Sequence record: PP761450.1
Source of the DNA: Escherichia phage LHE287
Reading direction: 5' to 3' (one strand)
Length of the DNA: 64,000 bases
A program made the position numbers and the translations under genes. A model generated the notes under the pieces. That model was not told where the DNA came from, ran no database searches, and saw only the letters and a program-made list of their open reading frames with translations. Of this stretch, positions 54,719 through 64,000 are shown piece by piece (within the stretch, counting starts at the first letter, position 1; the number at the start of each line of letters is the position of its first letter).

Positions 54719-55381
54719 TTACACCTCCACCGCGTGAGACTTCAGGAGTTCATCAATCTCTTTCTGTCCCATGTATGAGAACGGGGTGCGCTGGTAGAAC
54801 GCCCAGAGTACTAACTGGACAACAGCACGGGAACGGGTTTCGGCCGTCATCACCAGGCCACTGAAATGAGGAGACTCAGCTGTCCATTGTATCTCTTCGC
54901 CCAGGTCTTGATTACAGGTCACCGAGATGCGGAACTTGTTGCACAGATTGTCGACTTCTTTGTACGCATCGGTAGACACACGAAGTTGTTCCGCATGCGC
55001 CCACGGAGTTGTGACGATTCTTTCACCCATCACTTTATCAGAGATAAACCAATCAATACATTCGGTAAACTCACTAAAATGGTCGATACGATAAATGCAG
55101 TCTCCCCCTTCCATAGAACGCATGGCATGATAGCGAGCGTCGATTTCGTTGTTGTGCATCGCGTTGAAGTCGATGAACACGCGACGCGCCAGCACAACAT
55201 CTTCTGGTTGAAGTGCCAAGAAATCGTTCAGGCGGCTATAATGGAGGATATTGGAACCGTCGTGGCCACGTGTGCAATATGCGTAATAGCTACCGATACG
55301 GGCGTGGGCAATATAAGACAACGGGGCGAAGAATAATCCGTCAGGATCAGGACCGACGATAATAGAATAAAGTTTTTCCAT
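54719..55381 (-). CDS. Hypothetical protein (220 aa)
   Basis: ATG at 55381 in the recurring CTATATCATG context; track start (55396) is TTG. Confidence 0.5.
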   Translation of the reverse strand: MEKLYSIIVGPDPDGLFFAPLSYIAHARIGSYYAYCTRGHDGSNILHYSRLNDFLALQPEDVVLARRVFIDFNAMHNNEIDARYHAMRSMEGGDCIYRIDHFSEFTECIDWFISDKVMGERIVTTPWAHAEQLRVSTDAYKEVDNLCNKFRISVTCNQDLGEEIQWTAESPHFSGLVMTAETRSRAVVQLVLWAFYQRTPFSYMGQKEIDELLKSHAVEV

Positions 55382-55437
55382 GATATAGTCACTCAAATGA
55401 AAGGGCAGCTTTATGATAAGCCGCCCGAGGTTATTGA

Positions 55438-56292
55438 TTATTGGAAATCGCCAACATACATGTTCAGCTTGTCGTCCCAGTTCAGAACGACACGGATCGT
55501 TCCGGTATCTTCTGGGAAGGTCAGTCTGTCACACATGGCGCGATTAACATAAGTCCCGCTCTGGTTGACGTTGTAGTCCTTGCCTTGCATGATACCAAAA
55601 CGCTTGAAGTCGCGAGTGACCATCATGTTCAGAGTTGTCCAAGGGATTGCATCGCGCAGGGCTTTGCACAGGATGATCTTACCATCCGACCTGAACGACA
55701 CAAACAGCTCGTTGGCGATACGACGGCGAGTAGGCGGTTCAAGTTCACGCAGGGAAATGAATTGTGAATTCTTTACCTTTTCTGCCAGCGTCTGTACTTC
55801 TGCTGGATCCGGCTTGAACGACTCCACTGAAGAGTCAGACTTCATCACAACGTCACCCTTGCGCTTCTCAACCAATTGCTCCACAGCCTTTTGACTGTAT
55901 TTGGACTTAGGAACAACCGCTGGCTTGATGACAGGGCTTGCATCTGGTTTCGCCTTTGGGGTACTCCGAGCCGCACGCAGCTTTTCCTGGGCTTCCAGAA
56001 TGCGCTCTTGACGAGAAAGCGGAGCCTTTGGGGTGATCTTCGTACTGAAGTCAGAAACGCCGACCCAGTCACCCTGGTCATTACGCTTGGCGACCAGAGT
56101 CAGTTTGTGGATGATACCCTGAAGTTTGCTCTCACGTAAGTTGTCGGCATACCAGAACTTCGCGCCCATCTCGAACTTCTCGGCGAAGATCACGCGAGCG
56201 TCTTCGTGTACCAACATAACTTTGGCTGCGTTGGGGGCAAAAGCCTTATTCTTTTCGATAATCGCCGCAGCGATTGTTTTGGTCAGGAGCAT
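55438..56292 (-). CDS. Hypothetical protein (284 aa) with Lys/Pro-rich linker
   Basis: ATG at 56292; track start (56376) is TTG and overlaps the upstream lipoprotein gene. Confidence 0.5.
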   Translation of the reverse strand: MLLTKTIAAAIIEKNKAFAPNAAKVMLVHEDARVIFAEKFEMGAKFWYADNLRESKLQGIIHKLTLVAKRNDQGDWVGVSDFSTKITPKAPLSRQERILEAQEKLRAARSTPKAKPDASPVIKPAVVPKSKYSQKAVEQLVEKRKGDVVMKSDSSVESFKPDPAEVQTLAEKVKNSQFISLRELEPPTRRRIANELFVSFRSDGKIILCKALRDAIPWTTLNMMVTRDFKRFGIMQGKDYNVNQSGTYVNRAMCDRLTFPEDTGTIRVVLNWDDKLNMYVGDFQ

Positions 56293-56332
56293 CACAGTGT
56301 ATTCCTTCAGTTCACAATGTAGGGCTAAAATT

Positions 56333-56659
56333 TTAACCCGAAACTTTATTTTGAAATCCGACAAAGTCCTGGGCAATCCCCCGGCAATACATCAGGTCTT
56401 TCTTCGTTTGTGGACTGTTATCAGCCGCAGTCAGCATCATGGGAAGATCCAGCGCATTCTCTATCTGATCAACACTGAACAGATCAAGGCGCTTCAGCTC
56501 TCCCTCGAAGTCAGACAGTAGGATAGATGTGTCTTTGTCATCTGGGTGGAACTGCTGATACGTCTCCATCCATGCCACACATGTGTTCAGTTTGGACGGT
56601 GGTGCGGCGTTTACACACCCGGCTATCAGTACCAACAAGAGCAGGATTTTACATTTCAT
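56333..56659 (-). CDS. Predicted lipoprotein
   Basis: Signal peptide with lipobox LIAGC (MKCKILLLLVLIAGC). Confidence 0.55.
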   Translation of the reverse strand: MKCKILLLLVLIAGCVNAAPPSKLNTCVAWMETYQQFHPDDKDTSILLSDFEGELKRLDLFSVDQIENALDLPMMLTAADNSPQTKKDLMYCRGIAQDFVGFQNKVSG

Positions 56660-57345
56660 CACTCGTTCTCCTTCATCATATTGTCACAGTCAACACGAGT
56701 CTGCTGGAGTTCGCGCGACATGCGAGGATCATCAAGGTTCACGCTCAGATTCGTGGCCAGGTCTTTCAGACCGTTCTGAACCCTGTCTTCAAAGTAATAA
56801 TCGTTCTCAACCAGCCAGGCTCTGAGACCAAGAGCGCGGGTGCGCCATTCCTTCTTCAGGATGCGATCAGAGGTCTGCGTGGCGCTGTATTCGAATACTT
56901 TGACGCACTGGTTGCCATCGTTGATGAGGTTCAGGTGACGGCGGCCTATCTGCACACCCTTCTGTAATGCCGGAGAAGGGAGCGAACGGCACTGTCTTAC
57001 GGTCATTCGGCCTTGGGTGCCCATACGCCCAGTCATGATCAAATCGCCAGCCTCCATGCCTCCACGGTTAAATTCGTCGTCATTGAGGTAGCCTTTGAGG
57101 TTATAGGCTCCCTGTTTGTAACGGTTGAACTCAATTCCGGCATTGACGACAGCGGTGGAGACGTTGCCTGTGTTCCAGAGTTCAGCGAAGTTCTCTATGG
57201 AACCAGACTTGTCGATGGCAACCGCCTGGGAGAACCCAGCACAATAGGAAAGGTCGGACCACAGTTTATCACCTGTGGAGTTCAGCTTGGCAGCGGCGGG
57301 TAATGCCAGACCAGCCAGCACAACCCCGAGGATTAAACGTTTCAT
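56659..57345 (-). CDS. Secreted protein of unknown function
   Basis: ATG at 57345 with AAGGAG RBS; signal peptide MKRLILGVVLAGLALPAAA; track start (57510) overlaps the ParB-like gene. Confidence 0.55.
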   Translation of the reverse strand: MKRLILGVVLAGLALPAAAKLNSTGDKLWSDLSYCAGFSQAVAIDKSGSIENFAELWNTGNVSTAVVNAGIEFNRYKQGAYNLKGYLNDDEFNRGGMEAGDLIMTGRMGTQGRMTVRQCRSLPSPALQKGVQIGRRHLNLINDGNQCVKVFEYSATQTSDRILKKEWRTRALGLRAWLVENDYYFEDRVQNGLKDLATNLSVNLDDPRMSRELQQTRVDCDNMMKENE

Positions 57346-57424
57346 GGCGATTCTCCTTATTTCATTGGATGAAATGATAGGCGGCTCACCATGATGAGTA
57401 AAGGGATTCAATAAACTATCGTAT

Positions 57425-57874
57425 TCAGAAACGGGTATCGCTGACCGTTCTGTATCGCACACCCTGAAACTGTTTAGCGAGTTTAACAAATTCCATCGCT
57501 GGCAAATCAACTTTGTAGACCTTCATGCGCTGTTTGCCGTCCATGTTCAACGCAGCGACAAATCGGTGAGAACCGTCAACAACGTAATTGTCAGAAGATA
57601 CCCAAACTCGACCCATAGGTTTCTTATTTCTGATCTGCTTCATAATCTTCCAGACCTTCATTTTATTGATTTCGTTCTGGGTAAGACGAAGCGTTTTGAT
57701 GGGCACTTGCGCAGCATCTATGGACACGCCGTTGTCTTCAAGATATTTGTGAAAATCTTCTTGTTTGTCGGCATCGATTTGCGGCATAGAAGAACGAGAA
57801 AGCCCGAGGTTCCCAACAGGAATCCTCAGGCCGTTAATGATGTTCAACCAGTCAATAAAAGATGTAAGGAACAT
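57425..57874 (-). CDS. ParB N-terminal-domain (ParB/Srx-like nuclease) protein
   Basis: VVDGSHRFVAA resembles the DGxHR motif of ParB-like nuclease domains; GAGGTG RBS. Confidence 0.5.
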   Translation of the reverse strand: MFLTSFIDWLNIINGLRIPVGNLGLSRSSMPQIDADKQEDFHKYLEDNGVSIDAAQVPIKTLRLTQNEINKMKVWKIMKQIRNKKPMGRVWVSSDNYVVDGSHRFVAALNMDGKQRMKVYKVDLPAMEFVKLAKQFQGVRYRTVSDTRF

Positions 57875-57906
57875 GACACACCTCGGGATATAGGGTTATC
57901 CCTTAG

Positions 57907-58107
57907 TTAGCGCATCCATCGATCCTTTCTCTCTTTCTCCTTGCGTTCGCGACGTTTCTGGTCGGATCGGAATAACCAATAGAAGAAGTTCCCACCCAAG
58001 ATGAAAACCACCGCGATTATTACTAGGACACCCTTCACAATTTCCCAAACCAATTCTTTATCCAAATTATACCTCTTCTTCTTCTTCTTCTTCAGGTCCA
58101 CCGTCAA
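57907..58107 (-). CDS. Possible small membrane protein
   Basis: ORF with one TM helix; non-ATG start; N-terminal Lys run comes from the (GAA)n repeat in another frame. Confidence 0.25.
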   Translation of the reverse strand: MTVDLKKKKKKRYNLDKELVWEIVKGVLVIIAVVFILGGNFFYWLFRSDQKRRERKEKERKDRWMR

Positions 58108-58363
58108 TCAGGATACGAGCGGCGTCGAAAGTTTCCCCGCCCGTGTTCAGCAGCTTGGTCAGATCGTCAAGATATCGGACCGTGCCAAGATCAGATGACC
58201 GCGATATGAACTCCAGCATACCATACAACGCTGTTTGGAATCGGCTGTTATCGATATCGTTCTTTATTACCATCAGGCGCAAGATGTTCTCTGACTGAGT
58301 ATGGCCAACACACGCCTTGTCTCTGATCATCTCCTTGATAGAACTTCTCTCTGATGGTGTCAT
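58067..58363 (-). CDS. Hypothetical protein with C-terminal poly-Glu tail
   Basis: ATG start overlapping the upstream gene stop (ATGA); ends in seven Glu from a (GAA)n repeat. Confidence 0.5.
   Translation of the reverse strand: MTPSERSSIKEMIRDKACVGHTQSENILRLMVIKNDIDNSRFQTALYGMLEFISRSSDLGTVRYLDDLTKLLNTGGETFDAARILIDGGPEEEEEEEV
58073..58093. repeat. Trinucleotide repeat (CTC + (TTC)x6 on plus strand; seven Glu codons on minus strand)
   Basis: ctcttcttcttcttcttcttc read directly. Confidence 0.8.
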
Positions 58364-58734
58364 AACGTACCCCCGACAGAGATCAAGAACTCTTCTTGCA
58401 TGGTCTTGACCGGGTGGTGGTTGCGGGTTTCGAACATGAAGCCCCAGCCACCGTCGGCGACGTTGCCAAAGGTCTTGACGCCAAAGGACTTCGTCCCGTT
58501 GGAGCAGGAATAGATGTCCAGGACGTATGGGCTACCCTGATTGTCGATCCCACGATTCACGTCGTCTGATACGCAGCGCTCAATCATCTTCCCGTTCTTA
58601 TACAGAACGAGGTCTTGGCCATACGCCTTGAAAGCATAAACACCGTTGGTAGACACTCCGGTGATGACAGGAGGGGCGGAAACAGCAGCAAAGGAAGCGC
58701 CCAGCAGGGCAACAGCGAGGATTAACTTTTTCAT
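58360..58734 (-). CDS. Secreted protein of unknown function
   Basis: ATG at 58734 in CTATATCATG context; signal peptide MKKLILAVALLGASFAAVSA. Confidence 0.55.
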   Translation of the reverse strand: MKKLILAVALLGASFAAVSAPPVITGVSTNGVYAFKAYGQDLVLYKNGKMIERCVSDDVNRGIDNQGSPYVLDIYSCSNGTKSFGVKTFGNVADGGWGFMFETRNHHPVKTMQEEFLISVGGTL

Positions 58735-58793
58735 GATATAGTCTCTTGGTTTCAAATAGACGGGGTAATCATACCCCGCCCAAAGTTATAGAA

Positions 58794-59033
58794 TTAACTG
58801 ATGTGCTTCAGAAGAGCGAAGAGGATCGCGGCCTTGGCCTTTACCTTTCCTACGATGCCTGTTTCGACATCAACTTCTTCAGCAACCCACTCTTTTCCCT
58901 TCTTGCTGATGATAACGTCACGACGCTGTGCGTAGACTTCTTTGGTCGCATACACACGGCGGAACCCTTTAGCGCGGAGCAATCCCCAATTGCGATCAAT
59001 TTCTACTGAGGTTTCTACCATTTTGTTCTTCAT
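58794..59033 (-). CDS. Hypothetical small early protein
   Basis: 79-aa ORF downstream of copy 1 of the duplicated promoter cassette. Confidence 0.5.
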   Translation of the reverse strand: MKNKMVETSVEIDRNWGLLRAKGFRRVYATKEVYAQRRDVIISKKGKEWVAEEVDVETGIVGKVKAKAAILFALLKHIS

Positions 59034-59083
59034 GATATAATCTTACCTTTCAACCCGGTGAACCCATCGTTCGCCAGTTATTG

Positions 59084-59137
59084 AATAATACGCATTTACC
59101 TTATAGAAGTAAACCCCTAAAAGTAAAAATCCCCAAC
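59084..59137. repeat. Copy 1 of a 54-bp direct repeat (early promoter plus start of terminator hairpin)
   Basis: Identical 54-mer aataatacgcatttaccttatagaagtaaacccctaaaagtaaaaatccccaac also at 59440-59493. Confidence 0.85.
59085..59113 (-). promoter_or_regulatory. Early sigma70-like promoter (TTTACT-N17-TATTAT), copy 1
   Basis: -35 TTTACT, 17-bp spacer, -10 TATTAT on the minus strand. Confidence 0.5.
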
Positions 59138-59148
59138 AAACGTTGGGG
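59131..59148 (-). terminator. Intrinsic terminator (copy 1)
   Basis: CCCCAAC / GTTGGGG stem followed by ATTTTTAC on the minus strand. Confidence 0.5.
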
Positions 59149-59166
59149 ATTTAATAAAAGTTATGC

Positions 59167-59391
59167 CTATTTAATTTCTCGGCTTGAATTTTCTAGTTCT
59201 AATTTTCTTATAGCGGAAATTCTGCCTTCATCAGTTGCGGGAAACTCCCAAACAGCACGACGCCCATTGTTGGTATCACAACTTGCCAGCCAGCAGAAAT
59301 TAGAGGGGTCCTTAAACAAGACCAACTTCGGATTTCCTAAATTGATGAGGTTAAACGGGGTGAGGTCAACAACACATGATATAGCAGACAT
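59167..59391 (-). CDS. Hypothetical small protein bracketed by duplicated promoter-terminator cassettes
   Basis: 74-aa ORF with ATG start and GAAGG RBS, promoter copy 2 upstream, terminator copy 1 downstream. Confidence 0.5.
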   Translation of the reverse strand: MSAISCVVDLTPFNLINLGNPKLVLFKDPSNFCWLASCDTNNGRRAVWEFPATDEGRISAIRKLELENSSREIK

Positions 59392-59439
59392 AACATATAC
59401 CTTCTTTCAATGAACGGGAACGCCCCGATCTATGAATTC

Positions 59440-59493
59440 AATAATACGCATTTACCTTATAGAAGTAAACCCCTAAAAGTAAAAATCCCCAAC
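59440..59493. repeat. Copy 2 of the 54-bp direct repeat
   Basis: Identical to 59084-59137. Confidence 0.85.
59441..59469 (-). promoter_or_regulatory. Early sigma70-like promoter, copy 2
   Basis: Same -35/-10 elements as copy 1. Confidence 0.5.
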
Positions 59494-59504
59494 GTTTGTT
59501 GGGG
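59487..59504 (-). terminator. Intrinsic terminator (copy 2) after the ACP-like gene
   Basis: CCCCAAC-GTTT-GTTGGGG hairpin then T-run on the minus strand. Confidence 0.5.
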
Positions 59505-59511
59505 ACTTCTG

Positions 59512-59835
59512 TTATTTGCGCAGGGCAACCACGAGTTCAGCGAGTTCACCCATGGTCGGGTCGTCGCCTTTACTACCTAGCCACCCGTCGTCGATTTCGA
59601 CCTGAAACTCTTCTTCGAGGTCCATTACAATTTCGATAGCGTCCAGTTCATCACCGCCGAGGTCTTTCTTGGTACGGAGGCCAGCCAGCTTGTCCAGGGC
59701 GTCCTCGTTCTGAGATGCCACGTCGTCCAGCAATTTGCGCTTGTCATCGTCACGCCACAGATCCATATTCAGATTGTCAGTGGCGTACTGAGCCAGATGA
59801 CGCATGACTTCAACATATGTTGGCTTACTGCTCAT
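59512..59835 (-). CDS. Acyl-carrier-protein-like protein lacking the phosphopantetheine-attachment serine
   Basis: DLGGDELDAIEIVMDLEEEFQVEIDD aligns to the ACP core [26 protein letters not shown] with Ser replaced by Glu; about 45-aa N-terminal extension. Confidence 0.6.
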   Translation of the reverse strand: MSSKPTYVEVMRHLAQYATDNLNMDLWRDDDKRKLLDDVASQNEDALDKLAGLRTKKDLGGDELDAIEIVMDLEEEFQVEIDDGWLGSKGDDPTMGELAELVVALRK

Positions 59836-59854
59836 GCTACTTCTCCCAAAGAAA

Positions 59855-59870
59855 GGCGGGTTGCCCCGCC
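59855..59870 (-). terminator. Hairpin between the vWA gene and the ACP-like gene
   Basis: GGCGGG-TTGC-CCCGCC followed by TTTCTTT on the minus strand. Confidence 0.4.
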
Positions 59871-59877
59871 CGTTGGA

Positions 59878-62121
59878 TTAGATTTTGATTTCTTTCTCTG
59901 TCAGTTCGGCAGTGACCTTGTACTTCACGCCATCCACTTCAACTTCCATGGTGGACTCTTCCAGGTCGAGGTCGGTGAACCAGCCGTGGCCAGCAACGAT
60001 ACCATACACCACTTTAGACAGTGTCTTGTTCAGGGCACGGACTTCGGTGATGGCCGCCTTGGCAGCAGCGTCGATCCAGTTTTCGATCAGCTGTTTCTGT
60101 AAGGCTTCAGGCACGGCAGTGATCATAGGAGACTTCACGAATGCTTCGTACTCTTTCAGAGCATTGGCGATGAACAAGTCACCAGCATTGAGTTTCTTGT
60201 TCTCTGCGATCTTCTTCTGTACTGCCGCGATGCTCGGTAGTGAAGACGCCCCGGCGATCTTCACGTTCAGCTCACGGCTCATGTAGAAGTCGGTAGACTC
60301 TTTGGTCTCAGTCTTCGGTGAGAAGCCGTAATCGCGGATGCCGTAGGAGGACAGGAACTCGGCCGCCTCAGCGCCGTACTGTACTGCCAGGCCTTTGGCG
60401 TTACCCTTACCAACCAGGGCGTCTCGATAGAACTTCAGCACCTTCTGCTTGCCTTTCAGGGCTTCCAGACGGACATTATCCGCAAAGAACTGAGCAGCAC
60501 TGATGTTCTTGACCATGGCGCGGTTGACCAGCGGTACGCTTTCCAGGTTCAGGACAAACACTTCCGGGCCACCAAACACGTGGACGCCCATTTCGATCAG
60601 CTTCTGTACAACTTCGATATCAGCCTTGAACGGCAGAGTCTTCACGTTAATGATACCGTCTTTGACGATGGTGTAGTTGCGCCACTGGAAAGTATCCAGT
60701 TCTTCAGGCAGGCCAAACTTCTTCTGTGCGAATTCAGGCACAGCCACAGTACCGTGTTGAATTGTACGCACACTGATGTTCGGGCGCTCGGAGTTATAGA
60801 CCAAATCACTGATTGGCACAACACCCAGATCGTTGGTAGGTTCGAACGTCGGGTTCCACTCTTCGTGTTCTGCCAGCTTGAGAGCCAGGGCTTTACGCTC
60901 TTCTTTGGACTGAGCATTCGCGATCTGTTCTGCCAGCTTGTCTTCGGTGTCGTCGGTTTTCTGCACAGTACCGCGCCCGATACTCTTATAGGAGAACATC
61001 GGATGCTTGGTAGCAACAGGTACACCAGCTTCAGCCAGGTACGTCAGCACATCAACGACGGTGGTCGCATCTTCAGCCGGAACCAGGTCATAGTCAATAC
61101 CGTCAACGCCGCGCAGCTGGTCGTCAACAATCGCCTGAACCAGATCGTTCTTGATGTTGGAGTAGTCCTGCTTGGTGAAGCAGTTGCTGTACTGTTTGAT
61201 GAAGCGAACGTCGCCCGTCTTCTTCAGCGCAGCCCAAACCAGATCTGCGTCCATAGTGTGTACACCGTAGAACGCCAGCACGTATGCCGCCTGGATGTCC
61301 GTCAGGCTATCCATCTGGTCGATCATGTTAGGGTTTACAACCCACAGCTTGGTGACGCTCTCAGGGATGCTCACATAGCCGACCGGGTGAGAGTCATCGT
61401 CCTGCACCGCCAGTACTGTTGCCACACCGTTTTCGACGTAGATGGCATGGGTGTAGATGACTGGGACATCAACTTTCACCTTCGGCACTGATGACTTCAG
61501 CACGTTTTCCAGTTCGGTCTGGTATTCGGTCTGACCTTCGGCAAACACATGAGTCGCGCCAGAGCGCTCGGACATCAGAGCCAGCAGTTCGCGGTTACAG
61601 TGCCAGCCGTATTCGATGAAAGTAATGTTATCGAACGCAGAAGGCAAGGTTTCGGCGACGGCCAGGATTTCGTTTGAGCGCCAGCAGTTGTCATAACCAT
61701 CGGTCATGAATGCCAGGTTGTTGACGTAACCAGGTTTCTTCAGGTCACGCGCAGTATCCATCGCCAGTTTCAACGGCTCAACGAAGCCAGTACATCCGGA
61801 CGGTTGCAGGAAGCGATCGATCAGTTTGTTCAGCTCGCTCAGGTCAGACGCAGCACTAACCTGGCGGCCAGCGAACACAGTACCAAAGTCGCCTTTGGAG
61901 GAGAAATACAGAACGCTCACAGTGTCTTCCGGTTTCACCAGGGAAGGCAGGTTCTCCTTCAGATGCTTACGGACTTCAGGGAGCGCACGGTACATAGAGC
62001 CGGAAATGTCTACAACGATTACATGGTTGGACGGGGTAGCAGTCGCAACCGCATTCTTAAATTCTAATGATTCAATCATTGTTCTCTTCGCCTTGTGCGT
62101 AAGGGTTAAGTTCAGACTCAT
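59878..62121 (-). CDS. von Willebrand factor A (vWA/MIDAS) domain protein, large
   Basis: N-terminal HVIVVDISGSM (DxSxS MIDAS motif); about 600 aa of C-terminal sequence without recognisable motifs; the true start may be the internal ATG at 62079 (better RBS). Confidence 0.7.
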   Translation of the reverse strand: MSLNLTLTHKAKRTMIESLEFKNAVATATPSNHVIVVDISGSMYRALPEVRKHLKENLPSLVKPEDTVSVLYFSSKGDFGTVFAGRQVSAASDLSELNKLIDRFLQPSGCTGFVEPLKLAMDTARDLKKPGYVNNLAFMTDGYDNCWRSNEILAVAETLPSAFDNITFIEYGWHCNRELLALMSERSGATHVFAEGQTEYQTELENVLKSSVPKVKVDVPVIYTHAIYVENGVATVLAVQDDDSHPVGYVSIPESVTKLWVVNPNMIDQMDSLTDIQAAYVLAFYGVHTMDADLVWAALKKTGDVRFIKQYSNCFTKQDYSNIKNDLVQAIVDDQLRGVDGIDYDLVPAEDATTVVDVLTYLAEAGVPVATKHPMFSYKSIGRGTVQKTDDTEDKLAEQIANAQSKEERKALALKLAEHEEWNPTFEPTNDLGVVPISDLVYNSERPNISVRTIQHGTVAVPEFAQKKFGLPEELDTFQWRNYTIVKDGIINVKTLPFKADIEVVQKLIEMGVHVFGGPEVFVLNLESVPLVNRAMVKNISAAQFFADNVRLEALKGKQKVLKFYRDALVGKGNAKGLAVQYGAEAAEFLSSYGIRDYGFSPKTETKESTDFYMSRELNVKIAGASSLPSIAAVQKKIAENKKLNAGDLFIANALKEYEAFVKSPMITAVPEALQKQLIENWIDAAAKAAITEVRALNKTLSKVVYGIVAGHGWFTDLDLEESTMEVEVDGVKYKVTAELTEKEIKI

Positions 62122-62389: not shown

Positions 62390-64000
62390 TCAGATTTGTG
62401 AGGCCAGTTCTGTCACCAGAGGAGCGGCACGAACACGCGCATCTTCCAGTGTTTGAGTATTGAAGAACTCGCCATCACGATACACCAGCTGGTGCTGGTT
62501 GTCGGCGTCTTGCACCTGATCAAAGGTGATACCGTCAACCAACACTAGTTTACCCTGAGAGTCTTTAATGACTTTAAGGAAACCACGCGCAGACTTTTTA
62601 GTCCCGCCTTTATCGGTCTTCGGCTCTTTGAAGATCTCACGGAATTCACCGTTCACTTTACCAGCCGTGGCTTTCACTGCTGTGCCAGTACTGTCACGGG
62701 TGTTCATCTGGTAGGTGTAGGAACCGATACCGAACACCACGTTGATGGAAGCGAAGTTCCGGTCAGCCAGACGGCTAAAGATCTGGTCTTCACGCGCCAG
62801 GGTGATAGAATCACCGTAGATCAGGCCGATGTGCTCATCCAACAGGAAGTGCCCAGTTTCAGTCTGGGTGCCACCAAAGATCTCCCACAGGCGCTGGATA
62901 GAGCCGACCGCTTCTGAACGGCTGATGATATTACGGTCATCTACCATCAGAGAGTTGATCGTGCCTTCGCCTGTGATCAGGTGATAGGTGTTCGTCTCTT
63001 CGATGTGGATAACTTCGGTGCTGCTAGACACGCCGCTGATGTTCAGCGTAGCGCGGTCTTTGAACCCCTCGATGCGGTAGCCGCCAACGATGTGTACAGG
63101 GTCGCCCGAGTCGGGGCGAATCACGACTTTACCATTGCGCGCCATGATAATGTCTTTCAGGCGAGGCAGATAGTCGTCGATGACCTGCCAGTAATCCCAC
63201 GCATCAGACACGATGCTGACGATGCCATCAGGATACACGTCCTGCACCAGGCGGCGGAAGGTTTCGAATTCGCCATCCTTCGTGCCCATACACATCACCG
63301 CATGTTCCGTTGCGGCAACCGACCCAGCAACGACATAGTCTTCGTCGATGTCTGCGCCATAATACTCTTCTACGAAGTCCAGGGCAGGGTTGGTATCGGT
63401 GCCTTTGAAGAACACCAGATGACCGGAACCGGAAGACGCGGCATCATGCCACCCGCTCATACCACGAAAGGAGAAGTCGTGGCCTTGGTAGTCGATGAAC
63501 CAATGGTCCGGTGATACTCCCGTAGCGAGGGCAGCTTTCACCATCAGTGCCTTGTAATGCAAAGCTATGGTGGCGTTCGTCATCGGCTTCCAGATCTCAG
63601 AGCTGAACACAGTCTCCAGATAGTTGGTCAGCCAGTAGAACTCCGGCAGGGTATTGAACATCACATACACCGGAACGCCATACGGGCACATGGTACCTTC
63701 AGGCAGCGCGCGGACTTCGATAGGCAGGTAGCCGAGGTCATGCAGGGCTTCAATATGCTCTGTGCCGACGCGGCCTGGACCCAGGACTTTGTTCATGCGA
63801 CGGGCATACTTCTTCAGCACCTTGGCCTTCGGGCGCTGGAAGAATGCTTCGTCAAACAGTTCGTGGAACCAGGTCATGAAGCCCTGGATGCCCCAGACCA
63901 CCACGCCGTTCTTCGGCAGGTGAGAGTTGAACAGTTTGTTAGAGCGCGGAGTTCCGTTGGAGAACACCAGCTCACTGCCTTCAGGGAACTGATAGATGTG
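62390..64000 (-). CDS. nadV: Nicotinamide phosphoribosyltransferase family protein (NadV/NAMPT-like), N-terminus beyond window end
   Basis: NAMPT-like blocks (EGTMCPYGVPVYVMFNTLPEFYWLTNYLET; GHDFSFRGMSG; RPDSGDP); the frame stays open upstream of the GTG at 63967 to the window edge, so the 5' end is truncated. Confidence 0.8.
   Translation of the reverse strand, partial: HIYQFPEGSELVFSNGTPRSNKLFNSHLPKNGVVVWGIQGFMTWFHELFDEAFFQRPKAKVLKKYARRMNKVLGPGRVGTEHIEALHDLGYLPIEVRALPEGTMCPYGVPVYVMFNTLPEFYWLTNYLETVFSSEIWKPMTNATIALHYKALMVKAALATGVSPDHWFIDYQGHDFSFRGMSGWHDAASSGSGHLVFFKGTDTNPALDFVEEYYGADIDEDYVVAGSVAATEHAVMCMGTKDGEFETFRRLVQDVYPDGIVSIVSDAWDYWQVIDDYLPRLKDIIMARNGKVVIRPDSGDPVHIVGGYRIEGFKDRATLNISGVSSSTEVIHIEETNTYHLITGEGTINSLMVDDRNIISRSEAVGSIQRLWEIFGGTQTETGHFLLDEHIGLIYGDSITLAREDQIFSRLADRNFASINVVFGIGSYTYQMNTRDSTGTAVKATAGKVNGEFREIFKEPKTDKGGTKKSARGFLKVIKDSQGKLVLVDGITFDQVQDADNQHQLVYRDGEFFNTQTLEDARVRAAPLVTELASQI

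Follow-up and report, generated by a model that had tools for sequence, protein, structure and literature searches.

What does a phage do with a ParB-like protein that has no partition system around it? The question is raised by a minus-strand open reading frame (ORF) at 57425..57874 of a 64,000-nucleotide stretch of Escherichia phage LHE287 (sequence record PP761450.1), the whole of which is called the window here. The ORF starts with ATG and encodes a protein of 149 amino acids (aa), 17.27 kDa and isoelectric point (pI) 9.9. From the letters alone it had been taken for a lone relative of the ParB N-terminal nuclease domain, and for a candidate nuclease or nucleotide-dependent DNA-binding switch. 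The reading that we favour, with a confidence a little above even, is that of a solo, basic 17-kDa single-domain ParB/sulfiredoxin (ParB/Srx) nucleotide-binding protein, which is incorporated into the virion and enters the next host with the DNA.

Over the 4 kb around the ORF, identity to Escherichia phages vB_EcoM-ZQ1 and AV101 is 97-98%; this region matches 276 phage records. A tblastn search with the 149-aa protein found matches in 408 phage records; the identity is 60-99% in essentially all ViI-like phages, ~40-50% in Vibrio Ackermannviridae and ~30-34% in T4-like Aeromonas phages, and one match lies within a 971-aa protein of Pseudomonas phage Itty13 (62 kb). Named orthologues are Cba120 orf137, Vi01_117c, LIMEstone1 YP_007237423 and Sajous1 gp192. 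Judged by these comparisons the source phage is a Kuttervirus-like (ViI-like) member of the Ackermannviridae, and the gene is conserved across that phage family.

Fold and family of the 149-aa protein

Sequence models say little about this protein. In Pfam, ParB_N (PF02195) was unmatched at E<=10, no helix-turn-helix (HTH) model was matched and the only hit was a spurious one to Anula_coat (E 0.052); NCBIfam gave no match. A phmmer search and two profile searches of the PDB returned only chance matches (a Z-DNA-binding protein, RNase H, von Willebrand factor), besides a 17-residue DGHHR stretch of SerK at E ~1, which is not significant. HMMER aligns DGSHR with the DGHHR of SerK and 1VK1. Among the PHROGs the protein belongs to phrog_2859 (function unknown; E 2e-45, profile positions 316-467 of 740 columns) and matches ParB-like families weakly (E 1.5e-3 to 1e-2). 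The UniRef orthologue is named 'ParB/Sulfiredoxin domain-containing protein'.

The fold was settled by structure, as modelled, rather than by these sequence models. An AlphaFold2 model computed from an input alignment of 23 sequences (predicted local distance difference test, pLDDT, 83.5; predicted template modelling score, pTM, 0.78) matched pNOB8 ParB-N (5k5d, score 8.2), SbnI (5ujd, 8.0), sulfiredoxin (6ky4, 8.0; 1yzs, 7.1), the free serine kinase SerK (5x0b, 7.6), PadC (6ryk, 7.5), KorB (8qa8, 6.7) and Atu1540 (2hwj, 6.5); the next match after this ParB/Srx set scored 4.3. When Foldseek was run against all PDB chains, the first 47 matches were all ParB/Srx proteins. The best of them had an E value of 1.2e-3 and a query-normalised TM-score of 0.47, with ~90 of the 149 columns aligned; these low scores mean that no close relative of the protein has been solved. 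The alpha/beta core can be superimposed on solved structures of ParB-N, Srx and SerK, which places the predicted protein in the ParB/Srx superfamily at the level of the fold. The similarity to ParB that was expected from profile searches is confirmed only marginally: the weak PHROG matches and the fold are there, and ParB_N and significant PDB profile matches are not.

The core comprises strands 52-58, 90-92, 97-100 and 116-122 and helices 71-82, 102-111 and 126-134. The last helix of the model ends at residue 134 of 149; with the core ending there, near residue 134-135, an HTH or a C-terminal dimerisation domain would not fit. Residues 1-50 have no counterpart in solved ParB/Srx structures. 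Their first part, the N-terminal helix of residues 1-15, is conserved in the Ackermannviridae and lies mostly outside the region common to distant relatives.

A large family emerged when 1.84 billion cluster representatives (clusters at 50% identity) were searched exhaustively with the profile. Its members number 4,886 at E<=1e-3, of which 2,326 remain at E<=1e-10, and their lengths run from ~140 to 2,359 aa; many of the 4,886 clusters are 500-2,359 aa long. Residue conservation was counted over 175 family domains. The predicted DGSHR was found at residues 100-104 (57563-57577), and it is not a chance pentapeptide because its residues D100 (98%), G101 (99%), H103 (98%) and R104 (90%) are kept in 90-99% of these domains. 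The family form of this Box II is D100-G101-(H/S)-H103-R104-(W/F). Box I has the form L-(K/R)-x-T-Q66-x-E68, with Q66 in 98% of the domains and position 68 occupied by Glu in 75% and by Asp in 14%. Further signature residues are K73, S93 and D95 (94%). Where the N-terminal extension is present (156 domains), R27 is found in 156, M30 in 153, P31 in 155 and Q32 in 155. Two or three domain copies per protein occur in 14 of 191 relatives, which suggests that the 149-aa protein may act as a dimer. The family is a distinct branch of the ParB/Srx superfamily without a curated model.

Which of the named branches is nearest? When 70 solo relatives were compared with Pfam, the matches were all sub-threshold: ParBc_2 (PF08857) in 27 (best E 1e-4), DUF1015 in 4, ddrB-ParB in 4 and ParB_N in 1 (E 0.032). 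The NCBIfam SerK model NF053625 matches relatives at E values from 2.8e-9 (P0052) to 9e-3, far below its cut-off; the curated cut-offs are 23.6 bits for PF08857 and 380 bits for NF053625. The 149-aa protein itself matches neither model, so that the affinity is visible in sub-threshold matches of its relatives. The nearest sequence relatives thus seem, weakly, to be the kinase-type branch ParBc_2/SerK. E68 roughly matches the catalytic Glu30 of SerK, whose mutants E30A and E30Q appear in the titles of PDB entries; this match is judged by alignment coordinates, as no residue-level alignment reached Glu30. SerK and SbnI (5X0B, 1VK1; 5UJD) differ from the phage protein in a ~130-aa C-terminal domain (SerK chains are 241-242 aa), which is absent here, and they lack the 50-aa N-terminal extension that is unique to the phage family. 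Furthermore, they belong to biosynthetic operons, whereas the phage protein is phage-encoded and found in virions.

The DdrB-like ParB proteins form a different ParB/Srx family, which is solo or polyvalent; they are described as head-packaged early effectors and are predicted to sense or degrade nucleoside triphosphates (NTPs) (PMC5512222). Membership in this family was rejected. P1 DdrB, the prototype among polyvalent proteins, matches PF18763 at 2e-39; the query and 66 of the 70 relatives have no PF18763 match, and the best of the other four has an E value of 0.014. Kinship by hhalign was rejected as well, since the family profile A2 and a 34-sequence DdrB profile (A4) gave a probability of 5% over 23 columns, an overlap that covers only the loop DG(h)HR ~ ESGNGR; with alignment A1 nothing was found. 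The motifs also differ: TQxE ... DG(H/S)HR(W/F) plus the N-terminal R-x2-MPQ in the phage family, QPRDR ... ESGNGR in DdrB. Described DdrB-like traits are an extra helix with a conserved Tyr and an Asp/Asn that ends strand 2 (Iyer et al., PMC5512222). In the phage family two residues ahead of the DG motif are well kept, D95 and Y97 (77%), which may or may not correspond to those traits. What the two families share is the ParB/Srx fold, the enrichment in phages, the solo or polyvalent form, the association with heads, the predicted nature of an injected NTP-dependent effector and the partner repertoire (ART, kinases, GNAT, RelA/SpoT, 2H/Acb1, MuF/portal), i.e. a way of working and not membership.

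Canonical ParB, Noc and KorB resemble the phage protein in the fold of the N-terminal domain and in where the Box II arginine lies. These clamps differ in having PF02195, an HTH, a dimerisation domain, ParA, parS and a ParA-binding motif, all of which are missing here. The last of these, defined as [LFI]G[KR]G[LFI] in a ParB survey (PMC12704722), was absent from the 149-aa sequence on inspection. This 2025 survey of the ParB-CTPase fold used PF02195 for its searches, and so probably did not retrieve the phage family; short single-domain ParB-fold proteins in phages are already known there (PMC12704722).

The chemistry of sulfiredoxin is excluded. Sulfiredoxin carries the motif G-G-C-H-R with a catalytic Cys; the phage protein has Ser102 at this position and no cysteine in its whole length.

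Polyvalent relatives and detection in virions

Phage 'polyvalent proteins' are early effectors that travel in the head and reach the cell together with the DNA (PMC5512222). Thirteen family proteins of 699-2,359 aa combine the ParB/Srx domain with Zeta_toxin, AAA_33 kinases, a Mu-type portal (Portal_Mu), GNAT and AAA ATPases. Among 60 mid-sized relatives the partners are Zeta_toxin (6), AAA_33 (4), a cytidylyltransferase-like domain (CTP_transf_like, 4), PolyA_pol nucleotidyltransferase (2), RelA_SpoT (2), HINT/intein (2), GNAT (2), ADP-ribosyltransferases (ADPrib_exo_Tox, ART-PolyVal; 2) and Acb1 (1). The BFVD contains fusions to XkdF and fusions to cytidyltransferase-like domains, and its solo forms come from phages of Serratia, Aeromonas, Stenotrophomonas, Acidovorax and Tenacibaculum.

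When IMG/VR was searched with a degenerate DNA pattern that encodes D.Y.LDGHHRW, at least 120 stretches were found, a motif-selected sample; all 120 stretches listed lie in ORFs that match the family hidden Markov model (HMM). Among these listed matches are 112 distinct proteins, of which 11 are solo, 53 have 200-500 aa, 27 have 500-1,000 aa and 21 have at least 1,000 aa; 101 of the 112 are thus at least 200 aa long (~90% multidomain). Their partners include Zeta toxin, Portal_Mu, Phage_portal, Acb1, ADP-ribosyltransferases, GNAT and NUDIX, and one protein has a bona fide ddrB-ParB domain beside the family domain. The 127 flanking ORFs include Zeta toxin (5), Phage_Mu_F (4), DUF6267 (4) and ferredoxin (4). 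In 185,579 bacterial and archaeal species, with one genome each, the same pattern found 12 stretches, all of them in metagenome-assembled genomes; the family HMM matched ORFs in 11 of these, mostly multidomain ones. The difference between at least 120 stretches in IMG/VR and 12 in 185,579 species genomes strongly indicates that the family is enriched in phages.

By its architecture and partner repertoire the family is of the polyvalent-protein type of Iyer et al. 2017 (PMC5512222). The 149-aa protein, on the same comparison, is the free-standing form of a polyvalent-protein module.

Some relatives deserve a description of their own. The metagenomic protein P0160 (1733 aa) has predicted domains in the order Mu-type portal (71-398), GNAT (672-727), ParB/Srx (934-1040 and 1302-1408) and Zeta-toxin kinase (1518-1677); from this layout it is a portal-anchored polyvalent protein. 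The anti-CBASS phosphodiesterase Acb1 stands beside the ParB/Srx domain in three fused relatives from IMG/VR and metagenomes (one A3, two A5) with E values down to 2e-22, and one more, short relative (A2) has an Acb1 match at E 9e-8. A NUDIX domain is carried by one relative.

Orthologues of the protein have been detected in virions. For the LIMEstone1 orthologue the annotation reads 'confirmed structural protein'. In Table 2 of the mass spectrometry of this phage the row of matching mass reports 5 unique peptides and 35.6% coverage; the row was assigned by mass (17.31 kDa versus a calculated 17.30 kDa), the ORF numbers of the paper and of RefSeq being off by one. The same paper lists four proteins that its authors flagged as unexpected, with 1 peptide each and <5% coverage, and states that for every one of its 12 unknown structural proteins there is a structural counterpart in ViI. 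The Vi01 orthologue Vi01_117c is labelled 'phage associated protein'. The Sajous1 orthologue (99% identical) gave 11 spectra in mass spectrometry of CsCl-purified virions.

A proposed injected effector and its alternatives

According to the favoured reading the protein would be carried in the virion, probably in the head, and would enter the cell together with the DNA. It would bind an NTP in a pocket made of the TQxE strand, D95, the D-G-S-H-R loop and the R27/MPQ extension. It would put the NTP to enzymatic use, either transferring a phosphoryl group or hydrolysing the NTP, as SerK, SbnI and Srx do, and would form no DNA-sliding clamp. The protein would act in the first minutes of infection, and its probable role would be to weaken a host defence or to make the cell or the incoming DNA ready. 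Both the NTP-dependent activity and the target are predictions. We favour phosphoryl transfer or hydrolysis because the nearest relatives are kinases of the SerK/SbnI type, because sulfiredoxin is a single-domain precedent and because the conserved acid E68 lies near the position of SerK Glu30 in alignment coordinates. The partners of the domain (Acb1, NUDIX, ART, RelA/SpoT and Zeta kinases) point to counter-defence or host takeover.

A known parallel is found in T4, whose internal proteins and Alt are carried in the head and injected with the DNA as early effectors. The concept of small head-carried proteins is the same, but there is no kinship in sequence or fold with the phage protein described here.

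A more specific proposal is offered tentatively: the protein could be the first member, and one open to experiment, of a previously undescribed class of virion-injected ParB/Srx kinases or NTPases with an R-x2-MPQ lid. At the onset of infection it would modify or consume a specific nucleotide, an immune signal derived from a nucleotide, or a host protein, and thereby disarm a bacterial defence; the module would recur thousands of times in polyvalent proteins, beside Acb1, NUDIX, ART and Zeta-kinase domains.

Several points weigh against an injected enzyme. Detection of a protein by virion mass spectrometry does not prove specific packaging, and a protein of pI 9.9 could stick to DNA or particles; the Sajous1 list also includes non-structural proteins, among them RegB (31 spectra) and the ssDNA-binding protein. 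Inspection of the N-terminus recognised no capsid-targeting motif and no L/I-x-E (gp21-type) cleavage motif, and no site of the T4-type late promoter TATAAATA was found within 6 kb. Outside the Ackermannviridae the enrichment of head genes is modest, with MuF in 4 of the 127 flanking ORFs. The enzymatic role in the whole family is a prediction from sequence and fold, and since the likeness to SerK/ParBc_2 is far below the cut-offs, kinase-like chemistry is only a lead. Finally, the nucleotide specificity of the fold is not predictable from sequence or AlphaFold 3, according to the survey (PMC12704722).

The alternative that survives best, albeit as an unlikely one, is an intracellular enzyme of replication, repair or nucleotide metabolism, for example a small-molecule kinase that feeds nucleotide or DNA-hypermodification pathways; the virion signal would then be carry-over. 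The gene lies among non-structural genes (denV in relatives, acyl carrier protein, HU-like DNA-binding protein, helicase), and both the non-virion proteins in the Sajous1 list and the weak affinity to the serine kinase SerK are in line with this explanation. Carry-over is, however, difficult to reconcile with independent detection in two genera, for which both the laboratories and the methods differed, and with the 5 peptides and 36% coverage in LIMEstone1 versus 1 peptide and <5% for the flagged unexpected proteins. The covalent fusions to portal proteins and XkdF in other phages would also be hard to explain if the protein were a metabolic enzyme of the cytoplasm. A role in the serine-derived thymidine hypermodification of ViI-like DNA, which the SerK affinity brings to mind, seems unlikely for a family that occurs in so many unrelated phages and in polyvalent proteins.

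We also think it rather improbable that the protein is a ParB-like DNA nuclease or nickase, packaged or not, which cuts host or competitor DNA or processes phage DNA. Such an activity would fit the very basic pI and the weak matches to PHROG families of ParB-like partition nucleases. The Pfam relative ParBc_2 bears the name 'putative ParB-like nuclease', and nicking or DNase activities are listed for ParB/Srx proteins such as Osa and ParB-methylase (PMC5512222). Nothing was found in the present analysis that supports the nuclease label of the original prediction.

A purely structural or DNA-condensing virion component, with a ParB/Srx fold that no longer binds a ligand, would account for a small, very basic protein that is found in virions and labelled 'structural protein' in several records. 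This explanation is quite implausible: the residues that make up the nucleotide pocket in the superfamily vary least of all positions, even among thousands of divergent members of the family, fusions that are not virion-anchored included, and the tandem copies and enzyme fusions are more in keeping with an effector than with a building block.

A canonical or degenerate partition ParB or CTP-dependent DNA-sliding clamp has the fold of ParB, Noc and KorB in its favour and is refuted in practice by the lack of a Pfam ParB_N match, an HTH and a C-terminal dimerisation domain in the 149 aa, by the lack of ParA, a repeat array and the [LFI]G[KR]G[LFI] motif, and by the virulent nature of an Ackermannviridae phage, which does not need plasmid maintenance. 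The DNA-binding switch that had been suggested is likewise unlikely, as the protein has no DNA-binding or clamp-closing domains.

The locus and its significance

The coordinates of the gene and of the parts of its product are given in Table 1.

Table 1. The ParB/Srx gene and the segments and motifs of its product, in positions of the window.
Feature	Position	Strand	Basis
Complete ORF (149 aa + stop), stand-alone ParB/Srx-fold protein	57425..57874	-	ORF call, orthologue comparison
Shine-Dalgarno GAGGTG, 5-10 nucleotides 5' of ATG	57879..57884	-	sequence inspection
Residues 1-15, predicted N-terminal helix MFLTSFIDWLNIINGL	57830..57874	-	alignment, model
Residues 16-50, family-specific extension: P-x-G-N-L-G-x-x-R27-x-x-M30-P31-Q32-I, then helix 35-47	57725..57829	-	alignment
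Residues 51-135, predicted ParB/Srx core	57470..57724	-	model, structure comparison
T65-Q66-N67-E68, 'TQxE' motif, corresponds to Box I	57671..57682	-	alignment
D100-G-S-H-R104, Box II / phosphate-binding motif	57563..57577	-	sequence, alignment

That the gene stands alone, without ParA or a centromere-like repeat nearby, was borne out by three scans. PHROGs identified no partition protein and nothing ParA-like among the ten neighbouring ORFs, which belong to spanin-like, membrane, acyl-carrier, vWFA or unknown-function families. The deviant Walker A pattern KGGxxK[ST] occurred once in the six frames of the window, as an internal string at 62611 on the minus strand, which is taken to be a chance occurrence. 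A repeat scan of 55000-61000 found no repeat array; the sole sizeable repeat there is a 73-nucleotide promoter/hairpin cassette in two copies, ~1.2 kb from the ORF.

The two copies of this direct repeat (59080-59152 and 59436-59508) are 92% identical and flank an ORF of 74 aa (59167-59391, minus strand). On the minus strand each has a sigma-70-like promoter, TTTACT-17-TATTAT, and a GC-rich hairpin, AAATCCCCAAC...GTTGGGGATTT. The cassette resembles the promoter-early-stem-loop cassettes that are said to shuffle genes in T4-type phages. Around the ParB/Srx gene, scans for sigma-70-like promoters and terminators gave background level only, and a literature search for Ackermannviridae transcriptomes yielded nothing usable for expression timing. 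A promoter-like TTTACT-17-TATCAT is seen at 57374-57402 (minus strand), inside the 78-nucleotide gap 3' of the ORF, and the downstream gene for a 228-aa signal-peptide protein (56659-57345) may, judged by this sequence, have its own promoter.

The segment 58000-59900, from the acyl-carrier-protein gene to the ParB/Srx gene, varies in content among the loci of five relatives that were compared. Its equivalent in other Ackermannviridae holds denV or an Alt-like 'RNA polymerase ADP-ribosylase'; here it holds a 131-aa signal-peptide protein and small ORFs. From this comparison it looks like a plastic accessory region. A slippage-prone (TTC)7 tract (~58077-58097) is located on a gene junction, at the out-of-frame overlap of the ORF 58067-58363, with the C-terminus EEEEEEEV, and the ORF 57907-58107, with a Lys-rich N-terminus.

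Orthologous genes have other surroundings and other names. Vibrio phage YC has the orthologue two genes downstream of the gene for the DNA-end protector gp2. The place of the orthologue in Aeromonas phage 65.2 is next to thymidine kinase, between genes labelled 'capsid and scaffold protein'. GenBank records PQ306799 (4431-4880) and PP889471 label the orthologue 'cytidyltransferase', a domain that the 149-aa protein does not have. The source of this label is probably the relatives that are fused to CTP_transf_like (4 of the 60 fused relatives; BFVD A0A6J5M804).

Parts of this picture are already public: the ParB/Srx label (UniProt/InterPro names and the Sajous1 paper), the virion detection and the idea of a head-packaged DdrB-like effector (PMC5512222). 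The structural confirmation of the fold in the model, the distinct large family without a curated model, the R-x2-MPQ signature, the polyvalent context, the enrichment in phages and the probable source of the 'cytidyltransferase' label are new here. The original prediction had missed the virion detection, the kinship with polyvalent modules and the weak ParBc_2/SerK affinity.

For the specialist the result is useful and not very surprising, as stand-alone phage ParB-fold proteins are already recognised. Two public labels that mislead, 'cytidyltransferase' and 'partition/nuclease', are corrected by it. Should the protein indeed be injected and enzymatically active, it would provide a simple handle on a phage-enriched family of at least 4,886 clusters outside the curated models; it is convenient for this purpose, being a single domain of 149 aa from E. 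coli/Salmonella phages that can be grown in culture. With its nucleotide and target in hand, the role of the matching modules in giant polyvalent proteins would be easier to explain, and the chemistries known for the ParB/Srx fold would be extended as well.

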